Below are positions 23,334 through 35,801 of a stretch of DNA of 64,000 nt, piece by piece. The notes beneath the pieces were generated by a model. It worked only from the letters and a program-made list of their open reading frames with translations, was not told where the DNA came from and made no database searches. The position numbers and the translations under genes are program-made. Position 1 is the first letter of the stretch; each line of letters opens with the position of its first letter. The stretch covers positions 139,633 through 203,632 of the forward strand of contig NZ_JAXITC010000002.1 of NCBI RefSeq assembly GCF_034680285.1, in the 5' to 3' direction. Source of the DNA: Limnohabitans sp. GTDB lineage: Bacteria; Pseudomonadota; Gammaproteobacteria; Burkholderiales; Burkholderiaceae_C.

Positions 23334-24014
23334 ATGCAACTTCCTTTTGACAGCATGGTCTACATCGTGGACGACGACATCGGCGTGCGTGAAGGCATGG
23401 CCTGGCTGTTGCGCACGCGGCGCTTGTTGAGTGAGTCTTACGACAGCGCCGAAACCTTTTGGGAAATGCTGCAAACCAACCCGCCAAGTGAATGGCCTGC
23501 CGCTACACCATCACCCAGCCATTTGCCCTTGGCATTGCCCCGGCAAGCGGGTTGCATTTTGCTCGATGTGCGCATGCCCGGCATGAGTGGTCTGGCTCTG
23601 TTTGAACAGCTTCAAGCCTGCGGCATCGCGCAAGCTTGGCCCGTGATTTTTTTGACCGGACATGCTGACGTTCCGACCGCGGTGGACAGCGTCAAACGTG
23701 GCGCCTTTGACTTTTGCGAAAAACCCTTTTCGGACAACGCTTTGGTCGACCGGGTTGAACAAGCGCTGCTGCTGTCCGAAGAGCGCCTGAAAGCCCGCAC
23801 GCAACAAGCATTTTTGCAATCGCGTCTGGGTGAATTGACCGAGCGCGAACGCGATGTGATGCGCTTGGTGGTTGAAGGTTTGCCCAACAAACTGATCGCC
23901 GACCAACTGGACATCAGCGTGCGCACTGTCGAGGTGCACCGCTCGCGCGTGTTTGACAAAATGGAAGTGAAGTCGGCTGTCGAATTGGCCAATTTGTTGC
24001 GGGCGCTGACATGA
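23334..24014 (+). CDS. FixJ/DctR-like response regulator (REC + LuxR HTH)
   Basis: YIVDDD, LLDVRMPG, FLTGH, FCEKPF, LTERERDV, NKLIADQLDISVRTVEVHR. Confidence 0.92.
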   Translation: MQLPFDSMVYIVDDDIGVREGMAWLLRTRRLLSESYDSAETFWEMLQTNPPSEWPAATPSPSHLPLALPRQAGCILLDVRMPGMSGLALFEQLQACGIAQAWPVIFLTGHADVPTAVDSVKRGAFDFCEKPFSDNALVDRVEQALLLSEERLKARTQQAFLQSRLGELTERERDVMRLVVEGLPNKLIADQLDISVRTVEVHRSRVFDKMEVKSAVELANLLRALT

Positions 24015-24556
24015 GACGGACTTGGGTGCCGCCCTTGACGAACGGGTTCAGCCGCTCCCCTCATTGCGCAGGCCTGCTCATGGTTTTGGCTTTGTTGTTG
24101 TCTGGCTGCTCAGCCCCCCCAAAGCCGAGCGACAGCCCGCACGCGCCAACGCCAACGGAGAACCGCAGCGCTTACCACCCCAAACGCAACGACTTGGCCT
24201 TGTTTGCTCTTTCTTTGCTCGACACGCCTTACAGCTGGGGCGGTCGTGGGCCGGCCACAGGATTTGACTGCTCAGGTTTGGTGTCGCATGTGTACCGCGA
24301 AGCCGCGGGTTTACCTGTGCGCGGCAGCTCGGCCGATCTGGGCAAAAAAACCCGCCCGGTCGATCCCTCGCGCATCCAACCCGGTGATTTGTTGTTCTTC
24401 AACACCTTGGGCGCTCGCCATTCGCATGTGGGCATCTATGTGGGAGACGGCCGTTTTGTGCATGCCAGCAACCCGCGAACAGGCGTTCGGGTCGACCAAC
24501 TGAGCAACCGCTATTACGCGCAGCGCTTCGAAGGGGCGGGCACGCTACTGGACTGA
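24011..24556 (+). CDS. NlpC/P60 (C40) lipoprotein peptidase
   Basis: Lipobox LLSGC; PYSWGG, GFDCSG and HVGIYVGDGRFVHA catalytic motifs. Confidence 0.92.
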   Translation: MRRTWVPPLTNGFSRSPHCAGLLMVLALLLSGCSAPPKPSDSPHAPTPTENRSAYHPKRNDLALFALSLLDTPYSWGGRGPATGFDCSGLVSHVYREAAGLPVRGSSADLGKKTRPVDPSRIQPGDLLFFNTLGARHSHVGIYVGDGRFVHASNPRTGVRVDQLSNRYYAQRFEGAGTLLD

Positions 24557-24577
24557 TGCAGCCCGAGCGTGAAAAGG

Positions 24578-24715
24578 TCAGGGCGCTTTGTCGTCAGGGT
24601 CTTTTTGTTCAGCTGGCGGCAGCTCGCCATTTTTTCGCCCAGAAAACATGGTCCACCAAACGATCACGACGAACACCAGCAAGGCCAACAAGGCTTCCAG
24701 CAAAATAAGCGCCAT
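24578..24715 (-). CDS. Small single-pass membrane protein (45 aa)
   Basis: [45 protein letters not shown]: one TM helix and a charged tail, filling the gap between NlpC and mltA. Confidence 0.6.
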   Translation of the reverse strand: MALILLEALLALLVFVVIVWWTMFSGRKNGELPPAEQKDPDDKAP

Positions 24716-25907
24716 GAACACGTTCCCATTTCTTGGTTTGCGCCGGACGGCCTCCAGCGGTTTGATCGCAGCGATTGTAGGCAGCCTCGTGGCCTGCTCG
24801 GTCACGCCCGTGTTGGATGAGCCCGAACCAACACGGTCATCCACCACCAGCCCTGCCGCCAAGGCACCCAACGCACAAAACGCACCAATGCTGGAGCCCG
24901 GCCCTTTGCCACCGGTCATCACACAAGCCAAAAGCCGCTGGGTTCCCGTGCCTTGGTCGGACTTGCCGGGCCTGGAGACCGATGACCTCAAAGAAGCCTG
25001 GCCAGCTTGGTTGCAAAGCTGCACGCGACCAGCGGCAGGCTGGGCAGCCCTGTGCCCCGAAATCCGGCAATTGGCCAGTGCCACGGCGTCTGTGCAGCGG
25101 CAATGGATGCGGCAAAAGTTGCAAGCCTATCGGGTGGAGTCGCCCACACCCGCGGGCAACGGTTTGTTGACCGCTTATTACGAACCCGTTTTGAACGCCC
25201 AACGGCAAGCGCGGCAGGGGTTCAATGTGCCGCTGTATGCCCCCCCCGCTCAGCTGCAAACACGCAAACCCTGGTACACCCGCCAAGAAATGGAGACCTT
25301 ACCCGCTGCCCGGGCTGCATTGCGGGGGAAAGAACTGGTTTATCTGGCCGACCCGGTGGATGCCATGGTGCTGCACATCCAAGGCTCGGGCCTGATCAAT
25401 GTGACCGAACGCGATGGCAGTCAACGCATGGTGCGCTTGGCCTTTGCCGGCACCAACGATCAACCCTACAAAAGCATCGGCCGCTGGCTGCTGGACCAAA
25501 ACCTGATCCGCGACGCCTCTTGGCCGGGCATCAAGGCCTGGATCGACCGCAACCCCTCGCGGGTGAATGAGTTGCTGTGGCAAAACCCGCGCGTGGTGTT
25601 CTTCAAGGAAGAGGCACTGCCCGCAGGCGTCGTGCCGCCGGGCCCCAAAGGTGCGCAAGGTGTGCCCCTCACCGCAGGTCGCTCTATCGCGGTGGACCGG
25701 GGCAGCATTCCTTATGGCACCCCCGTTTGGTTGAAGTCCAACGGTCCCCAAACCAACTTAGACCGTTTGGTCTTGGCCCAAGACACAGGCACCGCGATCG
25801 TGGGTGCAGTCAGGGCCGACTATTACGCAGGCTCTGGACCCGAAGCGGGCGAATTGGCCGGGCGGGTGAAACAGCCCTTGCAACTGTGGGCTTTGTGGCC
25901 ACGATAA
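24714..25907 (+). CDS. mltA: Membrane-bound lytic murein transglycosylase A
   Basis: Lipobox LVAC; [45 protein letters not shown] (3D domain). Confidence 0.93.
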
Positions 25908-27074: not shown

Positions 27075-28031
27075 CTACTTGGACGTGGTGAGGGGGCAAT
27101 CCAATTGTCCATTTCGCGCCCAACGGTCCAGTAGGGGCCATAGCTTCTGCTGTACCTGGACGCCCTTGTTCGTTCGCAAGGCATGGTTGGCGCTCGGCCA
27201 ACGCCACGAGCACAGAACCATAGCTCGATCTTGGCTAGGCTGAGAGAAGGCAAGATACGCTGAGAGAGGCACGTACTCATCGGCATCTCCCCAAACCAGC
27301 AATACAGTCGCTCGACTGGCCCCAAGAGGTTCTGCCAAAGACCAGCTCCACAGGTCACGCCAATACCGCAGACTGCGGCCATGAACAACATGGTCGTCGG
27401 GCCAGGTCGATCGCACCATTGCCTGCAACTCTGTCCACACCTCTTCGCGTCCCATCTTTTGGAGCTGCAGCTGAAAGGTTTGCGCAGGATCCAGTCCGGC
27501 CGCAGACAACAGAACCAGGCCCATTAGCGCGCTCCCACTTTTGGCGGCTAAGGCGGGCAAGATTTCCGCCCCCTCTGAAATTCCCAGCAACAACACGGGC
27601 AATGGCGATGGCTGCTGCAATAAGGACTCCAATGCAACCAAAGCGTCAGCTTGCCAACGGGCCAAACTGTCGTATTGAACGAAGTCGCTTTCACACTGGT
27701 CCGGTGGTGTCGAGACCCAGGGCCGGCTAAAGGGCTTGTGAAAGATCCAAATTTCTGCAGTTTGTAGGCCTTCGAAATACCGCTGGGCCACAGGGCCCAT
27801 ACCTGCGCAACCAGAGCCAGGAATCACGACCAACCGATAAAGCGCTGAACCATGGCTGGCAGCTCGCCACAAAACCTGTACGTACCGATCAGCATGGACC
27901 GTCGGAACTCGATAAATTTTCCAAGCAGCAGGACTATCAGCGGGTTGTGCGACCAGCGGCATTAACAGCGCCATGACCACTGAACACCAACCCAACAAAG
28001 AGCGGCTCGGCTGCATGCCCAACCAATGCAT
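27075..28031 (-). CDS. Exported alpha/beta hydrolase
   Basis: Signal-like N-terminus, IPGSGC, nucleophile GISEG, candidate Asp (GDADE) and His (ANHAL). Confidence 0.7.
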   Translation of the reverse strand: MHWLGMQPSRSLLGWCSVVMALLMPLVAQPADSPAAWKIYRVPTVHADRYVQVLWRAASHGSALYRLVVIPGSGCAGMGPVAQRYFEGLQTAEIWIFHKPFSRPWVSTPPDQCESDFVQYDSLARWQADALVALESLLQQPSPLPVLLLGISEGAEILPALAAKSGSALMGLVLLSAAGLDPAQTFQLQLQKMGREEVWTELQAMVRSTWPDDHVVHGRSLRYWRDLWSWSLAEPLGASRATVLLVWGDADEYVPLSAYLAFSQPSQDRAMVLCSWRWPSANHALRTNKGVQVQQKLWPLLDRWARNGQLDCPLTTSK

Positions 28032-28052
28032 GTTCAACTAGACCTGTAACAA

Positions 28053-28937
28053 TCAACGGAGTATTAACACTTGCTCGGCAGCCGCTGGTTGAGCCTGGCC
28101 TGCAGGAACGGTAACACCTGATTGTGCTGGCCGAAGGCGTTGGGACATGGGGGCGTCCATACCCATCTGAGCAGCCAATTGTTCGTACACGCTTCGCGAG
28201 AGGCTTTGTGATGTTTCTCGCATCACCTTGGCGCGGTTGGGTGGAACAAGGTCGCCACGGGCAGACAACAACTTGGTGTCGTTGCCATTGCCTTGTGCAG
28301 AAAACGCAGCCTTAATTTCCAATGTTTTTGTATTGATCAAAGAGAAATCTGCCAACAGATCCAGTAAGAACTGGTGACTGGAACTACTGGTGCCTTGAAT
28401 CGGCGTCAATTGGTCACGAAATTCAATACTAGAAAGCTGCCCAAACAGAACGTAGTCAGCGCCCGAAAATTCGCCCTTCTTGATGCGAGCAATGATGTCA
28501 TTCACCTCAGGTTGACGCACGGGCTGGGCCATTTTGCCTGTTTGTAATTGTTGCAAGGCCTGCTCGGCTTTGGTGGGTTGGGGGTCTCCCGCGTCAAAGC
28601 CTTTCCCCTGAACCAAACGGAAAGTTGTTCCTTGGATCAATTGACCCTTAATGTCATTGGTGAACGAGCGCAGTTCTCGTTGCTCCAAATAGCTGTATTT
28701 ACCCGCCACATACGTGCCACTGCCACTGTAACTGGCCGTGACGGAATTTCGGTTGGCATTGAGTGAAGCTTTCTCACTGTAGGTGCCTGCTTCAAAATAT
28801 TGAGAAACTGCACGGGTATAAGCCAAGTCTGTCACCGCCACTTTAGGCGGATTTTGCGCCCAAACATAAGGCGTTAAGCAGGCACTGGACAGAGCAAGGA
28901 ACGCCAAAAGAAATTCGCGTTTCATGGTTTGTTTCAT
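28053..28937 (-). CDS. Exported protein of probable CsgG/HfaB/TolB_N-like fold
   Basis: Signal peptide ending VWAQ, then KVAVTDL, GADYVLFGQLSS and DFSLINTKTLEIKAA, an alpha/beta pattern like CsgG-family proteins. Fold assignment is inference. Confidence 0.55.
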   Translation of the reverse strand: MKQTMKREFLLAFLALSSACLTPYVWAQNPPKVAVTDLAYTRAVSQYFEAGTYSEKASLNANRNSVTASYSGSGTYVAGKYSYLEQRELRSFTNDIKGQLIQGTTFRLVQGKGFDAGDPQPTKAEQALQQLQTGKMAQPVRQPEVNDIIARIKKGEFSGADYVLFGQLSSIEFRDQLTPIQGTSSSSHQFLLDLLADFSLINTKTLEIKAAFSAQGNGNDTKLLSARGDLVPPNRAKVMRETSQSLSRSVYEQLAAQMGMDAPMSQRLRPAQSGVTVPAGQAQPAAAEQVLILR

Positions 28938-28950
28938 GTTTACTTCCTTT

Positions 28951-29550
28951 TCAGCGCTTGCTGGTCTTGCGAATTTCTTTTTCTTCTTGCCACTCGATCG
29001 TTCCCTCTTCAACGTCGAACATCTTCAACGTAAATTTATAGAAAACATCCTTGGTGGTGTTGTTTTGCTTGACGATGCTGGTCAGCTCACCTTCAAGGCT
29101 GTACTTGGCTGCGGTCATCTTGCCCACCTTGGCTGTTGTGTTGGACTTATACAGACCGCTTTGATTCTGGCGATTTAACTCGTCAACGCCCGATTGCATC
29201 TCGTTAATAGACCGCGTGAAACGCACCTTGCCCGATTTGACCAATGAAGTCTGTATCGAGTTCATGACGTTGGTGGTATCGATGTATTCGCTGGTTTTGT
29301 TGCGCACGGTGGAAATGGTGACCGTTGGGCGACCTTGGAAAATGCCCGTTTCCAGCAAGCTACCCACCATTTTTTCGGCCATCATTTGCAAATCTGTGGA
29401 GCCAAACTCATTGGTTACCAATTCGACGGCCTTGGCATCACCATAATTGACCTGCCGGTCAAAACGCACCACAGGTGACGTGACTGCTGTGGTGCATGCA
29501 CTGAGCGTGCAAGTCACCAACAGGGCCAAAAAGAGTTGGGAGATTTTCAT
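28951..29550 (-). CDS. lpoB: LpoB-like lipoprotein (TIGR02722/YcfM-like)
   Basis: Lipobox LSAC; FGSTDLQ, VRNKTSEYIDT, ELNRQNQSGLY, GTIEWQEEKEIRK. Confidence 0.8.
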   Translation of the reverse strand: MKISQLFLALLVTCTLSACTTAVTSPVVRFDRQVNYGDAKAVELVTNEFGSTDLQMMAEKMVGSLLETGIFQGRPTVTISTVRNKTSEYIDTTNVMNSIQTSLVKSGKVRFTRSINEMQSGVDELNRQNQSGLYKSNTTAKVGKMTAAKYSLEGELTSIVKQNNTTKDVFYKFTLKMFDVEEGTIEWQEEKEIRKTSKR

Positions 29551-29576
29551 GTCGTTTACTTTCGTCTGTTCCTGAT

Positions 29577-29978
29577 TTATTTCTTTTCGAAGCTCAACTC
29601 CAGACGGAAGTCTGTGGCGTTCGAATGGTGAGCAACGCCTTTGATCGTTTGCTGACCTTGGCCCATGAGCATGATCTGCTTCCAGGATTCGCCATCACCT
29701 ATCTGGTTTCCCACCCCGTCTAACCAGCGATAACGGTAAAACACCATTCGATCGGCAGTCGCCTTGTTGTGCAATTCAGACTGTACGGTCAGGATGTCGT
29801 TGCGGCGTACAACACGCATCTCTGGGATCACCACTTCGGGCGCATCGCCACGAGAAATCAACTTGGCGGACACTGCCGCAGGCGTTACTACTCCGGGATT
29901 TTGAGCCCATACGGGGTAGGAACTGATCGATCCAGCCACGAAGAAAGCAATTAAATTTAATGTTAGATATCGTGTCAT
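29577..29978 (-). CDS. YcfL/DUF1425 family protein
   Basis: SKL-like start of mature region, YRYRWLD-G, WKQIML, IKGVA--SNATDFRLEL; located between COG3014 and lpoB. Confidence 0.75.
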   Translation of the reverse strand: MTRYLTLNLIAFFVAGSISSYPVWAQNPGVVTPAAVSAKLISRGDAPEVVIPEMRVVRRNDILTVQSELHNKATADRMVFYRYRWLDGVGNQIGDGESWKQIMLMGQGQQTIKGVAHHSNATDFRLELSFEKK

Positions 29979-30094
29979 TTGTTATCTTTCGCTAAGCTGA
30001 CCACCATTTGATGGCCATCAGCACTGTATTTTTTATTCCTTGTTCTTGACGATGGATTACCGAAGCAGTGAGGGATGGCCTCGGTTGTTCCTTA

Positions 30095-31465
30095 TCATGG
30101 CAACTGGCCCATAAAAGCCACCGAACTGGTCAAGTTCAGGTTTTCATACAAGCGCAAAGGTACAAGCGCATATTGACCATCGATTTTGATAGGACCAAAA
30201 CTTCGACCTGCAACTGTGATCGTATGCTCTCCTGGCGGCAGGTGAGCACGCGCAAGATAGACTCGGCCAGGTAGCATCCTCCAAATGCGGTCATCGGCTT
30301 GCTCAGTAACCGCGGAGGCAACGGCTCCGATCAAGCCCCCCCATGGTCCTGCATTTTTTTCAAGCTGTTCTTGCATTAGCCCCTTCGCAACAGCACGCGT
30401 GAAACCACGCAAAACCATTCCAGGCATTTCATCTTTGAGGGCGCGACGGGCCATGACGTTCAAGTCCACTACCTTACTCAAAGGCAAGCTGTTATTACCC
30501 CACTGCAAACTATCCAAAATGGGGTCTTTAGAGGGTTGAATCGTAGGGTATGAAATGCTCACTGTCCTTACGCGGCGCCCAGTTGGTACAGGTAAGGTGA
30601 AAGCGCGAGGGATTCGGGCGGGAGCAGTACCCGCTTCCACCACAAACAAAACATCGGTCATGCGCTGTTTACGTTTCCACGTGAAACTGGTGCGATCGTC
30701 GAGGCCACGCAATCCTTCCTCAAGTGCAGGCGCATTTGGGGTCAACTCAATTGCCTTACGGTAGCCCGGCGCAGCCAAACCCGGCTCATTGAGCGCTTCG
30801 TACAAAAACCCGGCCAGATAATGGCTCAATGCGTTTTGATAGCCGTTCTTCAGTGCCAAAACCTCCGGATCATTCAGCGACTCAACGGGGTAACCGTTGA
30901 TTTCCTTACCCTGAACCTGTGCTCCCTTAGCTTTGGCTTCCTCTTCGGCCTTGCCTGTCTCCTTGCTGCGGAATTCGGCAATCACCGCTTCCCGTTCATG
31001 CGTTCGTTTGACATCAACCCGGGCTTTGTCGAGGTCCATCTGCCCAATCCGATTGAGTGCGATACGTGTGGTCAACCACACTTTTTCGTAATCCTGCCCC
31101 TCATAGACTTTCAGCCGCTCACTCACTACGGCAGCTCCCAAAGTACCCAACAGTTTTTGTGGGTTTGTCTTGGCTGCCTCTTCCCACTCGATCACTTTGG
31201 CGTCAGCGGCAAGGTATGCTTGTGTGCTTTGATCAAATTGCTTGTTCAAACGGAGCAACTCGCCTTTCTCCATGTTGTACAGGAGTTCTTTTTTGGCCTC
31301 TTCCGACTTGTTGCGCTCGTCTAGCTGACGCAGGGCCGACTGAAAATCGCCTTGTTGACTTACACCCTGAATTTTTTGAGCCGTCTCATTGTGGCTTTGC
31401 ATGCTCGCACAGCCGGTGAGCAAAACCAATATGGTTATTGCAACAAAGTAGCGTGATTTATTCAT
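30095..31465 (-). CDS. COG3014 family TPR lipoprotein
   Basis: Lipobox LLTGC; helical repeats; YEGQDYEK, YQNALSHYLAGFLYE, ADDRIWRMLP. Confidence 0.8.
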   Translation of the reverse strand: MNKSRYFVAITILVLLTGCASMQSHNETAQKIQGVSQQGDFQSALRQLDERNKSEEAKKELLYNMEKGELLRLNKQFDQSTQAYLAADAKVIEWEEAAKTNPQKLLGTLGAAVVSERLKVYEGQDYEKVWLTTRIALNRIGQMDLDKARVDVKRTHEREAVIAEFRSKETGKAEEEAKAKGAQVQGKEINGYPVESLNDPEVLALKNGYQNALSHYLAGFLYEALNEPGLAAPGYRKAIELTPNAPALEEGLRGLDDRTSFTWKRKQRMTDVLFVVEAGTAPARIPRAFTLPVPTGRRVRTVSISYPTIQPSKDPILDSLQWGNNSLPLSKVVDLNVMARRALKDEMPGMVLRGFTRAVAKGLMQEQLEKNAGPWGGLIGAVASAVTEQADDRIWRMLPGRVYLARAHLPPGEHTITVAGRSFGPIKIDGQYALVPLRLYENLNLTSSVAFMGQLP

Positions 31466-32656: not shown

Positions 32657-33238
32657 TCAGCCCAAACCAATGGGCGCGGGGGCGCGTGTGACGATCAGGC
32701 TGAAGAGCCTTTCATAGGCCTCAGCGGGCCGGTAATGGCCTGTGAGAGGGTCAGCGTTTTCGGCAAACGCCTCGTTCAGCAGCCGCCAGTCTTCGTCCGA
32801 AAAGCAGCGCTCGGCCTCGGGCAGGATGACGTTTTCTTCCAAGTTCATGTGCTCCAAATAAGCATCGATGTACTGGCCAATGGCTTCTTCAAATTCCGTG
32901 CGCCTGCTCGGGCCCAACAAATCCCAAGCCAACAGCAGGTGCTGTAAATCGCGGGCGGCTTTTTCGCTGCGCATGTGGTCACGTTCGAGCTTGTCCACCG
33001 CGCCCATGACTTTGGGGGCGAGCTTGACCACTTTAGGAAAGAGCAGGTTTGACTCTTTGGGGTGGTGCAGGCGCTCCGGGAATTCGTCGATGTAAAACAG
33101 CATGCCGCGCAGCACATCAAAAAACTGGCGTCGGTTGTCGCCCGGCCCTTTTTGCACCATGAGCCGCATGGATTGCAGCATGGCGGCCAAACTCGCGTGT
33201 TCGTCGCGGATGGTCTGAAGGGCGCTGTGGCGGGTCAT
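32657..33238 (-). CDS. Hemerythrin (HHE) domain protein
   Basis: IRDEH, LHHPKE--LLFP, LERDH, YLEHMNLEE. Confidence 0.88.
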   Translation of the reverse strand: MTRHSALQTIRDEHASLAAMLQSMRLMVQKGPGDNRRQFFDVLRGMLFYIDEFPERLHHPKESNLLFPKVVKLAPKVMGAVDKLERDHMRSEKAARDLQHLLLAWDLLGPSRRTEFEEAIGQYIDAYLEHMNLEENVILPEAERCFSDEDWRLLNEAFAENADPLTGHYRPAEAYERLFSLIVTRAPAPIGLG

Positions 33239-33294
33239 GAAATTTCTCCGTGAAGTGAATGCCTTCACTCTGCGCTTTTGTCCCACTCCTCGCC

Positions 33295-33308
33295 ATGATG
33301 CACGTCAA
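33295..33308 (-). promoter_or_regulatory. FNR-like box upstream of hemerythrin gene
   Basis: Minus strand reads TTGAC-GTGC-ATCAT (consensus TTGAT-N4-ATCAA, 2 mismatches), about 57 nt upstream of ATG 33238. Confidence 0.5.
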
Positions 33309-33319
33309 GAAAATGTGCT

Positions 33320-35527
33320 TCAGGGCTTCCAACGCTTCAGCAGCAATGCGTTGGCCATGACACACACCGAGCTGAGCGCCATGGCTGCGCCCGCCATCAT
33401 GGGGTTGAGGTAACCCAAGGCAGCCATAGGGATGCCCGCCACGTTGTAGGCAAAGGCCCAGAACAGGTTCTGCCGAATCTTGGCCACAGTGCGGGCCGAG
33501 ATATCGAGCGCCGCGCCCACCAAAGCTACATCGCCGCGCATGAGGGTGATGCCCGCCGCGTGCATGGCCACATCGGTGCCATTGCCCATGGCCATGCCCA
33601 CATCGGCGGCGGCCAAGGCGGGCGCGTCGTTCACCCCGTCGCCCACCATGGCGACCACCTTGCCACCCGCACGCAGTTTTTGCACCTGCGCCGACTTGTC
33701 ACCGGGCAGCACATTGGCCAGCACTTCTTCCGCTTCGGGGCGCAAGCCCAAGCGGCGGGCCATGGCTTCGGCAGCGGCTTGGTTGTCGCCCGAAATCATC
33801 ACCAGCTTCAAGCCGCGATCGCGCAACACCGTTAATGCTTGCGCTGCGCCCACTTTGGGTTCATCCCCAAAACCCATGAGCAGCAGGGCATGCAACCCCG
33901 CATCGGTGCGCTCTGCCAAAGCCGACAGGCTTGCGCCTTGCGCCTGCAAAGCGTTGATGTCTGGCTGCCACATGCCGATGTTCAGACCTTCTTCTTGCAG
34001 CCAGCGCAAACTGCCCAGCAACAGCTGTCTACCGTCCACCTTGGCCAACACGCCCTTGCCGGGCACGGCTTGCAGCTCTTGCGCGGTGGGGCCTGACAGG
34101 CCCAGCTTTTCTGCGGCACTCACCACCGCACGCGCCAAGGGGTGTTCGCTGCCACTTTGCACCCGTGCGGCCAAGGCCAACGCCGTTGTTGCATCGTTGC
34201 CGGGCGCAGGCACATGGGCCAGCAAGCGTGGTTGGCCCACGGTGAGCGTGCCGGTTTTGTCAAAGGCCACGGTTTGCACGCGGTGCGCCAACTCCAGCGC
34301 CTGCACGTCTTTGATCAAGATGCCGTGTTTGGCCGCCACACCCGTGCCCGCCATGATGGCCACGGGCGTGGCCAGGCCCAGGGCGCAAGGGCAGGCAATG
34401 ACCAGCACGGCCACCGCGTGGATGAGTGCTGTTTCAAAATCTGAGCCCACGGCCATCCACGCACCCAAAGTGATCAGGGCGATCACCAGCACCAAGGGCA
34501 CAAACACTTCGGCCACTTTGTCCACCAGCCGCTGAATGGGCGCCTTGGCCGCTTGCGCGTCTTCCACCAGGCGGATGATGTGCGAGAGCACGGTTTCGTG
34601 GCCCACGGCTGTCACGCGCATGAGCACGCGCCCTTCGCCATTGATGGAGCCGCCCGTCAAGGCCGCACCCGCAGCCTTGGCCACGGGCAAGGGCTCGCCG
34701 GTCAGCATGGATTCGTCCACCTGGGTTTGGCCTTCGACCAGTTCACCGTCCAGCGGAAAACGCTCCCCAGGCCGCACCACGATAAGGTCGCCCACCAAGA
34801 TTTCGTCCACAGGCACATCGACCTCGCCGTCTTCGCCCAACCAATGGGCTTTGTCCGGGCGCAAGGCGTGCAAGGCACGGATTGCCTCGGTGGTCTGGCG
34901 TTTGGCACGCGCCTCCAGCCATTTGCCCAGCATCACCAAAGTGATCACCACGGCCGAGCCTTCAAAGTACAGATGCGGCGCGTACCCCTCATGCGCGTTA
35001 AGCCACAACCACACCGACAAGGCCCAACCTGCGGTGGTGCCCAAGGACACCAGCAAATCCATGTTGCCCGTGAGCGCGTTCAGCGCATGCCAACCGGCTT
35101 TGTAAAAACGTGCGCCCAACACAAACTGCACAGGCGTGGCCAGTGCAAATTGAACCCAAGCGGGCAGCATCCAATGCTGGCCCCACAGCTCGGCCAACAT
35201 GGGCAAGACCAAGGGCGTGGTCAGAAGCAGACCTACACCCACCGGCATGAAGCCTGCCCAGGGTGATTCGCGGCCTGCATCAGCCTGTGCTTCGGGTGTG
35301 CGAGGCTCGTACCCGGCGTCGCGCACCGCGCGGCGCAGCCGTGCGTCGGTCACGTCAGTGGACGCCACTTCGATGCGGGCCGATTCTGTTGCCAGGTTGA
35401 CCGTGGCGCTGAGCACACCGGGCATTTTTTTCAGGGCTTTTTCGACCCGCGCCACACACGAGGCGCAGGTCATGCCGCCGATGCCGATATCGTAGGTGAG
35501 TGGAGGTTCGTTCTTGATCTGTGTCAT
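33320..35527 (-). CDS. copA: Cu(I)-type P1B heavy-metal ATPase
   Basis: GMTCASC HMA domain, [21 protein letters not shown] and MALSS metal ligands. Confidence 0.93.
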
Positions 35528-35603
35528 GGCATGAAGTCCTGGATGGTCTATGCTCAGACCAGACCCCAACGGGTCGTGTTCAGTTCATTAAAGAGGATGC
35601 ATC

Positions 35604-35801
35604 ATGAACCAAATTTTCACCGTTGAAGGCATGACGTGTGGCCACTGCGAAAAAGCAGTCACCAAAGCTTTATTGTCTTTGGACGCACAAGCCAAGGTTG
35701 TGATCGACCGCACACACAACACCGTGCAAGTGGATTCAGAAAAAAGCCGCGACGTTTTGGCCCAAGCCATTGCCGATGAAGGTTACCGCGTCACCGTTTG
35801 A
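35604..35801 (+). CDS. copZ: Copper chaperone (HMA domain)
   Basis: VEGMTCGHC; divergent from copA. Confidence 0.9.
   Translation: MNQIFTVEGMTCGHCEKAVTKALLSLDAQAKVVIDRTHNTVQVDSEKSRDVLAQAIADEGYRVTV

Follow-up and report, generated by a model that had tools for sequence, protein, structure and literature searches.

A 64,000-nt stretch of the genome of Limnohabitans sp. (referred to as the window) carries on its minus strand an operon of five genes, here named g1 to g5, every product of which is exported. The third gene encodes a lipoprotein of the LpoB family. LpoB is a textbook case of outer-membrane control over cell-wall synthesis. In this bacterium the label was found to be misleading, because the genome encodes neither penicillin-binding protein (PBP) 1b nor its UB2H docking domain, none of the 30 carriers of an LpoB-type gene sampled from the same taxonomic order has PBP1b, and the long linker of Escherichia coli LpoB is missing. 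With moderate confidence, the five products are proposed to form an outer-membrane-tethered periplasmic complex at the interface of peptidoglycan and outer membrane, and not an activator of PBP1b. The first three genes, referred to as the trio, appear to represent an operon type that has already been described in Campylobacter and Helicobacter.

Layout of the operon

The initial annotation of this DNA described a unit of four co-oriented genes. All four were present in the list of open reading frames (ORFs) at the positions given, on the minus strand (Table 1), but the unit proved to be one gene short: a fifth gene, g5, follows g4 at a distance of 15 bp and is retained in 60 of 66 related loci. 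The gaps between successive ORFs from g1 to g5 are 116, 26, 13 and 15 bp.

Table 1. Coordinates in the window of the five genes of the operon.
Gene	Coordinates	Strand	Product length	Source and remarks
g1	31465..30095	-	456 aa	ORF list
g2	29978..29577	-	133 aa	ORF list
g3	29550..28951	-	199 aa	ORF list
g4	28937..28053	-	294 aa	ORF list
g5	28037..27075	-	~313-320 aa	ORF list; start uncertain

For g4, the ATG preceded by the Shine-Dalgarno sequence AAGGAAG is the likely start; a TTG at 29012 (319 aa) would overlap g3. Three candidate starts were noted for g5, namely TTG at 28037, ATG at 28031 and ATG at 28016. A scan for promoters and terminators gave no signal exceeding the shuffled background.

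The two lipoboxes noticed earlier, LLTGC in g1 and LSAC in g3, were both found, with the predicted lipidated cysteine at position 19 in each case (LLTG/C19 and LSA/C19). They are conserved in 60 of 62 homologues of g1 and 63 of 65 of g3. Signal-peptidase-I type signals (VWA/Q) are present in g2 and g4, none of the 67 homologues of g4 has a lipobox, and a lipobox-like motif occurs in 35 of 61 homologues of g5.

Conservation and gene order

A scan of species-representative genomes with g4 yielded 66 betaproteobacterial loci, including representatives of Limnohabitans, Rhodoferax, Acidovorax, Simplicispira, Giesbergeria, Hydrogenophaga, Verminephrobacter, Sulfuritalea, Gallionella and Chitinimonas. 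As far as the contigs reach, all of these loci keep g1-g2-g3-g4-g5 in this order, and the genes are always co-oriented; g1 was found in 61 loci, g2 and g3 in 64 each, g4 in all 66 and g5 in 60. The most conserved gene is g3, with 79-94% identity over these loci, against 60-92% for g1, 53-83% for g4, 44-76% for g2 and 33-66% for g5, the lowest value. The best related locus, in an uncultured Limnohabitans metagenome-assembled genome, shows 66-94% protein identity across the five genes.

The flanks of the module vary among the 66 loci. Because it lies just downstream of rsmG-parA-parB in about half of them, the module is regarded as a stable origin-proximal core locus and not as an island. In about 30 loci, and in the locus L014:1080-5309, the upstream genes are rsmG, a LysE-type exporter gene, parA, a serine hydrolase gene (PF06821) and parB. 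In the Limnohabitans window, parAB and the proposed oriC are located 6-20 kb from the module.

Two broader samples were examined. In 201 genomes spread evenly over the same GTDB order, a strong LpoB-family gene was present in 30, and in 28 of the 29 loci fetched g1 and g2 were directly upstream of g3, in the same order. Eleven genomes carried g4, all of them (11/11) among the 30 carriers of the LpoB family, and its position was permuted: g1-g2-g3-g4, g4-g1-g2-g3, g3-g4-g1-g2 and g1-g2-g3-X-g4 were all observed. In the same 29 trio loci g5 was found twice, in one case after g4 and in the other upstream of g1 (g5-g1-g2-g3-g4).

In a class-wide sample of 250 genomes the LpoB family was detected in 42 and g1 in 36, all 36 within the 42 and with the genes adjacent. 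About 11 loci had the arrangement g1-g2-g3, about 22 had g3-g1 with no detectable g2, and four had g3 alone. In the sampled genomes carrying it, g1 always adjoins an LpoB-family gene. Fisher tests, calculated with no correction for phylogeny, gave p = 1e-37 for g1 and p = 1e-10 for g4 within LpoB-positive genomes. The co-occurrence which the initial annotation had proposed to examine by phylogenetic profiling was thus confirmed, the genes being kept together in permuted orders.

In one gammaproteobacterial genome (locus L115, G260:C3:148000-163214), a tandem pair of LpoB-family genes comes after g4-g1-g2, and the upstream ORF that was scored as g4 gave a third, weaker LpoB-like match.

The LpoB-family lipoprotein and the question of PBP1b

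On sequence grounds g3 is assigned to the LpoB-family lipoproteins (PF13036, 1.5e-43; TIGR02722, 127.6 bits against a cut-off of 110.55). Its similarity to the globular domain of E. coli LpoB is distant, at 17-20% identity, and the profile comparison nevertheless makes homology clear (hhalign probability 95%, E 3.7e-8). The N-terminal part differs. Where E. coli LpoB carries its disordered linker, the segment of g3 is short and conserved (SPVVRFDRQVNYGDAKAVE). In the alignment, about 20 conserved residues separate Cys19 from the segment YGDAKAVE.VTNEFGSTD in g3 and its relatives, where E. coli has about 58 Pro-rich residues. In E. coli, LpoB reaches PBP1b via a disordered linker of 145 A and docks on the UB2H domain (PMC6220978).

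The earlier observation that no PBP1b gene lies near the module was found to hold for the whole genome, which is 99.99% complete. Its one class A PBP belongs to the PBP1A family (TIGR02074, 618.6 bits against a cut-off of 508.75) and scores 380 with the PBP_1b model, for which the cut-off is 717.75. No match to TIGR02071 above the cut-off was obtained anywhere in the genome. The GT51 domain occurs only in this PBP1A-family protein and in the monofunctional MtgA, and a genome-wide search with the UB2H model matched only Mfd-sized and UvrB-sized ORFs. Because PBP1b is missing from the genome, g3 cannot do the textbook job of LpoB.

PBP1b was found in three of the 201 genomes of the order and in none of the 30 that carry an LpoB-type gene. 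In the class sample it was absent from 13 of 36 trio-bearing genomes and present in 23, with a background of 124 in 250, so that the association of the trio with PBP1b is at most weak (p = 0.07, not phylogenetically corrected). The six genomes with an LpoB-family gene and no g1 all had PBP1b (6/6). Homologues 86-87% identical to g3 are named "penicillin-binding protein activator LpoB" by NCBI; as a functional statement this name is very likely wrong in this lineage. The suspicion raised in the initial annotation, that the LpoB label may mislead, was therefore well founded, and automatic naming propagates a function that cannot apply here.

An alternative that we consider improbable, though it survives better than the others, is that g3 is a genuine Lpo-type activator of the sole class A PBP (the PBP1A-family enzyme) or of another synthase, with the remaining genes as accessories. 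It draws on the true, distant homology of g3 with the globular domain of E. coli LpoB, on the score above the TIGR02722 equivalog cut-off and on the presence of a PBP1A-family enzyme, which may lack a canonical activator because the only LpoA-like match is below threshold. That match, the sole LpoA (PF04348) signal in the genome, lies in a 404-aa ORF (G000:C6:133348-133851) and reaches 22.6 bits against a threshold of 28.8. The genome offers no UB2H domain for docking, however, and the trio is present nearly independently of PBP1b. Moreover, since the linker is short, with its roughly 20 conserved residues set against some 58 disordered ones (145 A) in E. coli LpoB (PMC6220978), it is less likely that g3 reaches an inner-membrane enzyme through the wall.

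The CsgG/FlgT/LpoB-fold protein g4

No Pfam family was found above threshold in g4, the only match being a weak one to PF13036 (4.9e-4). Comparison of the g4 and g3 families (hhalign probability 94.6%, E 6.6e-8) points to g4 as a distant paralogue of g3. Searches against PDB sequences, with the single sequence and with the profile, gave nothing meaningful. The mature protein begins with PK(I/V)AVTDL.

A structural model was built with AlphaFold2 (AF2) on an alignment of 76 sequences (pLDDT 83.5, pTM 0.72) and used instead of the single-sequence prediction (pLDDT 35). It contains a long beta-hairpin at residues 48-79 and a C-terminal tail of low confidence. In Foldseek, the best matches of the model were CsgG chains (6l7a, 4uv2 and 4uv3; E ~1e-6, TMt 0.43-0.55), followed by FlgT (1.7e-6) and then by HpaA, GNA1162, PelC, LptE and LpoB (1e-3). 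TM-scores across the matches were 0.37-0.55, and the probability was 1.0 for CsgG, FlgT, PelC and LptE with E values from 1e-6 to 7e-4. The predicted structure thus has an alpha/beta fold of the CsgG/FlgT/LpoB type and the resemblance appears real, in agreement with the relatedness to CsgG and LpoB that the initial annotation had suggested.

The ring- or pore-like role put forward for this protein in the same annotation was not upheld. An oligomeric CsgG- or PelC-like ring or channel made of g4, possibly with g3, which would lie within or beneath the outer membrane and export a polymer or protein, is considered quite unlikely. In favour of the idea, CsgG heads the structural matches, followed by FlgT, PelC and LptE, all of which are ring, plug or ring-associated proteins; the long beta-hairpin would fit as well, and the combination of a tetratricopeptide repeat (TPR) protein, a ring lipoprotein and a hydrolase recalls PelB, PelC and PelA. 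Yet the TM-scores are only 0.37-0.55, and a CsgG-type pore is unsupported because g4 has neither a lipid anchor (0/67 homologues) nor amphipathic membrane hairpins: a test at the sequence level showed hairpin 48-79 to be polar on both faces, with variable Gly/Ser insertions at its tip, unlike lipid-facing strands. The Pfam CsgG family (PF03783) had no match at E <= 0.01 in g4 or elsewhere in the genome, and one of the 76 members of the g4 family matched it, weakly (E 0.0099). No genes for Pel, flagellar or Lpt partners were found in the operon, and none for curli, a substrate, a synthase or a porin in or near it.

The g4 family is small, with 156 representatives among 1.8 billion proteins. One of these, a 441-aa protein (P0205; L109:3090-4415) on a JGI metagenome contig, carries a PG_binding_1 domain (3e-12). 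It occupies the position of g4, after a 464-aa TPR protein, a DUF1425 protein and an LpoB-family protein, and the fusion therefore suggests that the fourth subunit is tied to peptidoglycan. On the same contig it is followed by three ORFs of 447, 151 and 128 aa without assignment.

The TPR lipoprotein g1 and the DUF1425 protein g2

The product of g1 is probably an outer-membrane-type lipoprotein of the COG3014 / Cj0089 / HP0018 type. Its N-terminal half is helical, with a single TPR motif at about residues 211-245, which was detected as a weak Pfam match and by a profile search that retrieved designed TPR proteins in the PDB (7.5e-6). The C-terminal domain contains the conserved motifs THEREAVIA, NGYPVE, TDVLFV.E.G.AP, MARR.L.DEMP and ADDR.WR.LP, and 32 columns are invariant among 26 diverse homologues. 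The possibility that this half adopts the LpoB/CsgG superfold found no support, as hhalign against the g3 and g4 families aligned the signal peptide only.

Just before the invariant ADDR.WR.LP, at residues ~373-390 (window 30270-30350), g1 has a conserved hydrophobic stretch of small residues, GGLIGAVASAV, resembling a glycine zipper or a membrane-associating helix. Some homologues have long Asn/Gln/Gly insertions. The stretch might be linked to the inner-membrane fractionation that has been reported for Cj0089.

For g2, the match to PF07233 (DUF1425, 1.7e-18) and the similarity to E. coli YcfL (26% identity, E 4e-6) identify a predicted periplasmic protein of the DUF1425/YcfL family with an Ig-like beta-sandwich. 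Its family profile retrieved the two DUF1425 structures that have been solved, PDB entries 3o0l (4.4e-14) and 4gio (2.5e-9), the latter of which we take to be Cj0090. The signal of g2 is of the signal-peptidase-I type (VWA/QNP), and the protein is not lipidated in this lineage.

The exported hydrolase g5

The product of g5 is predicted to be an exported carboxylesterase-like alpha/beta hydrolase of a divergent subfamily without a name. All matches to curated families fell below threshold (Hydrolase_4, 20.2 bits against 27; EstD, 37.6 against 600), and further weak matches were to Abhydrolase_1 and Peptidase_S9. In 30 homologues Ser154 (in the G-x-S-E-G motif, GISEG), Asp253 and His285 are invariant. 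This putative triad has the canonical order of nucleophile, acid and histidine, and aligns with the triad of solved esterases. Three cysteines are invariant as well. The homologues have either a signal-peptidase-I signal or a lipobox, about half of them being lipoprotein-like. A kinship with YcfP (L077:7144-7686), the alpha/beta hydrolase encoded at the end of the E. coli cluster ycfL-lpoB-thiK-nagZ-ycfP, was considered and dropped when no similarity was detected.

The proposed complex and the alternatives

A complex is the most economical explanation of the module because all products are exported and their genes are inherited as one block that holds together when the order changes. Also counted in its favour were the proteins of similar fold to g4 retrieved by Foldseek, all of them periplasmic and outer-membrane-proximal. 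What is well supported is the description of a conserved five-gene envelope operon, akin to the cj0089-cj0091 operon, that does not serve as a PBP1b activator. We infer that the products assemble, that their role is related to peptidoglycan and that g5 contributes to it, as follows. The two lipoproteins, g1 as a TPR scaffold and g3 with its LpoB fold, would anchor the complex beneath the outer membrane. The soluble subunits, the Ig-like YcfL protein g2 and g4 as a non-lipidated paralogue of g3, would be recruited to g1 and g3, and the exported serine esterase g5 would be the catalytic partner in this betaproteobacterial lineage. The assembly may scaffold or regulate enzymes of cell-wall remodelling, either hydrolases or a synthase other than PBP1b, with the result that the outer membrane stays attached and the cell keeps its normal shape. 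E. coli LpoB would then be a specialised descendant of the g3 family which acquired its long linker and turned to another target.

Several observations weigh against this proposal. The link to peptidoglycan is drawn from one fusion protein, one study of Helicobacter pylori with unconfirmed co-immunoprecipitation partners, and the distant homology with LpoB. Cj0089, the probable Campylobacter counterpart of g1, was recovered in the inner-membrane fraction. For the C-terminal half of g1 no known fold emerged, since the profile search of the PDB matched the TPR motif only. Finally, most trio loci outside this lineage lack g5, which may for that reason be a late, loosely coupled addition.

A more far-reaching version of the proposal is put forward as a speculation, which we hold to be rather unlikely as a whole. 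The trio and g4 would build an ancient ring or lattice, non-flagellar and anchored by lipoproteins, beneath the outer membrane. In many diderm lineages it would couple this membrane to the remodelling of the cell wall. The LpoB-PBP1b pair of E. coli would be what is left of it after reduction and a change of target, and g5 would have been recruited in betaproteobacteria of the Comamonadaceae type, where it might modify peptidoglycan or an envelope lipid or lipoprotein.

Given as little weight as the export channel is the view that the lipoproteins are adhesins exposed on the cell surface or acting there, a role proposed for Cj0091 of Campylobacter, and that attachment or biofilm formation, and not envelope maintenance, is the purpose of the operon. 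The study concerned (PMC3100323) did not demonstrate that Cj0091 is exposed on the surface, and the adherence defect of the mutant could arise indirectly via a defect of the envelope. The module is also conserved in planktonic freshwater bacteria and many free-living lineages, and the fold relatives of g4 face the periplasm.

That the genes are mere neighbours with unrelated functions, g5 in particular being an unrelated esterase, would fit the presence of g5 in only two of the 29 trio loci of the order sample and its conservation as the lowest of the five, but is very improbable given the five-gene order in 60 of 66 loci over several genera with differing flanks, the 15-bp gap between g4 and g5, the fact that g5 stays with the trio even when upstream of g1, and the complete nesting of g1 and g4 within LpoB-family-positive genomes.

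The module is a widespread and compact set of genes of which every product is exported, and for which a Helicobacter mutant phenotype (vesiculation and shape) is available. The predicted intact triad of g5 and the PG_binding_1 fusion provide handles on the role of the ancestral LpoB-type complex.

Genomic neighbourhood and base composition

The module is flanked at its 5' side by a divergent gene for an old yellow enzyme, at a distance of 53 bp, and at its 3' side by a convergent class II aldolase gene. Further upstream (window 32657-35801), genes for a hemerythrin-domain protein, a CopA-type P-type ATPase and a small CopZ-like metal chaperone are located; they are kept only in the closest Limnohabitans relative. 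On the plus strand (window 24011-25907), 1-3 kb past the 3' end of the module, lie genes for an NlpC/P60 lipoprotein and an MltA lytic transglycosylase. A functional tie of these two with the module was rejected, as neither is found within 8 kb of it in any of the 66 related loci (0/66), and their proximity is probably a coincidence.

The G+C content of the module (window 27075-31465) is 51.8%, compared to 58.5% genome-wide, which places it in the lowest 3.4% of windows of the same size. In g3 the drop stems from amino-acid composition and not from codon usage, the G+C content at third codon positions (GC3) being 64%. Recent horizontal acquisition was considered on account of this dip, and was set aside since the dip is moderate, no further out than the lowest 3.4% of windows, and many relatives have the module as a stable core locus near the origin.

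Comparison with known systems

The trio resembles cj0089-cj0090-cj0091 of Campylobacter, in which a TPR lipoprotein, a DUF1425 protein and an LpoB-family lipoprotein are encoded in the same order and with similar sizes (453, 122 and 207 aa, compared to 456, 133 and 199 aa in the module). Judging by the architecture, the match of g2 to 4gio and the statements in the respective papers, g1-g2-g3 appears to be an operon of the cj0089-cj0091 / HP0018-HP1457 type, a type that is already described. The initial annotation had seen in the module its best candidate for an undescribed protein system; for the core trio this no longer stands. The module differs from the Campylobacter operon in that g2 is not lipidated and in the addition of g4 and g5 after the trio. 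Cj0091 is associated with the outer membrane, and its loss lowers adherence and early colonisation (Oakland et al. 2011, PMC3100323).

The counterparts of the trio in H. pylori are HP0018, HP0444 and HP1457. Cj0089 and HP0018 (453 and 469 aa, against 456 aa for g1) have the lipobox, the single TPR motif and the position in the operon in common with g1, to which they are probably related. HP0018 was reported as a homologue of Cj0089, and its deletion leads to hypervesiculation and a less helical shape; it co-immunoprecipitates with the peptidoglycan hydrolases AmiA and MltD, as yet unconfirmed partners (PMC11394524). In the same study HP1457 was described as the orthologue of Cj0091 and noted as a homologue of LpoB (PMC11394524). 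Almost nothing further was found in full-text literature on DUF1425, COG3014 or LpoB homologues outside the enterobacteria.

The alpha/beta core fold of the g4 model is shared by CsgG, FlgT, PelC and LptE, all outer-membrane-proximal envelope proteins. Unlike CsgG, g4 lacks both a lipid anchor and amphipathic transmembrane hairpins, and it is not matched by the Pfam CsgG family.

In E. coli, ycfL and lpoB are homologous to g2 and g3, adjacent and in the same order, and LpoB, like g3, is a lipoprotein. Only this pair is kept there, g1, g4 and g5 being absent, so that the described operon type is reduced to ycfL-lpoB. The disordered linker of E. coli LpoB is about 58 residues long, and the protein binds PBP1b at its UB2H domain, whereas g3 has a short, conserved N-terminal segment in a genome without PBP1b or UB2H. 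With 36 of the 42 LpoB-family members of the class sample adjoining a large TPR lipoprotein, and no PBP1b in any of the carriers of the order sample, these comparisons indicate that E. coli LpoB is an atypical member of its family.

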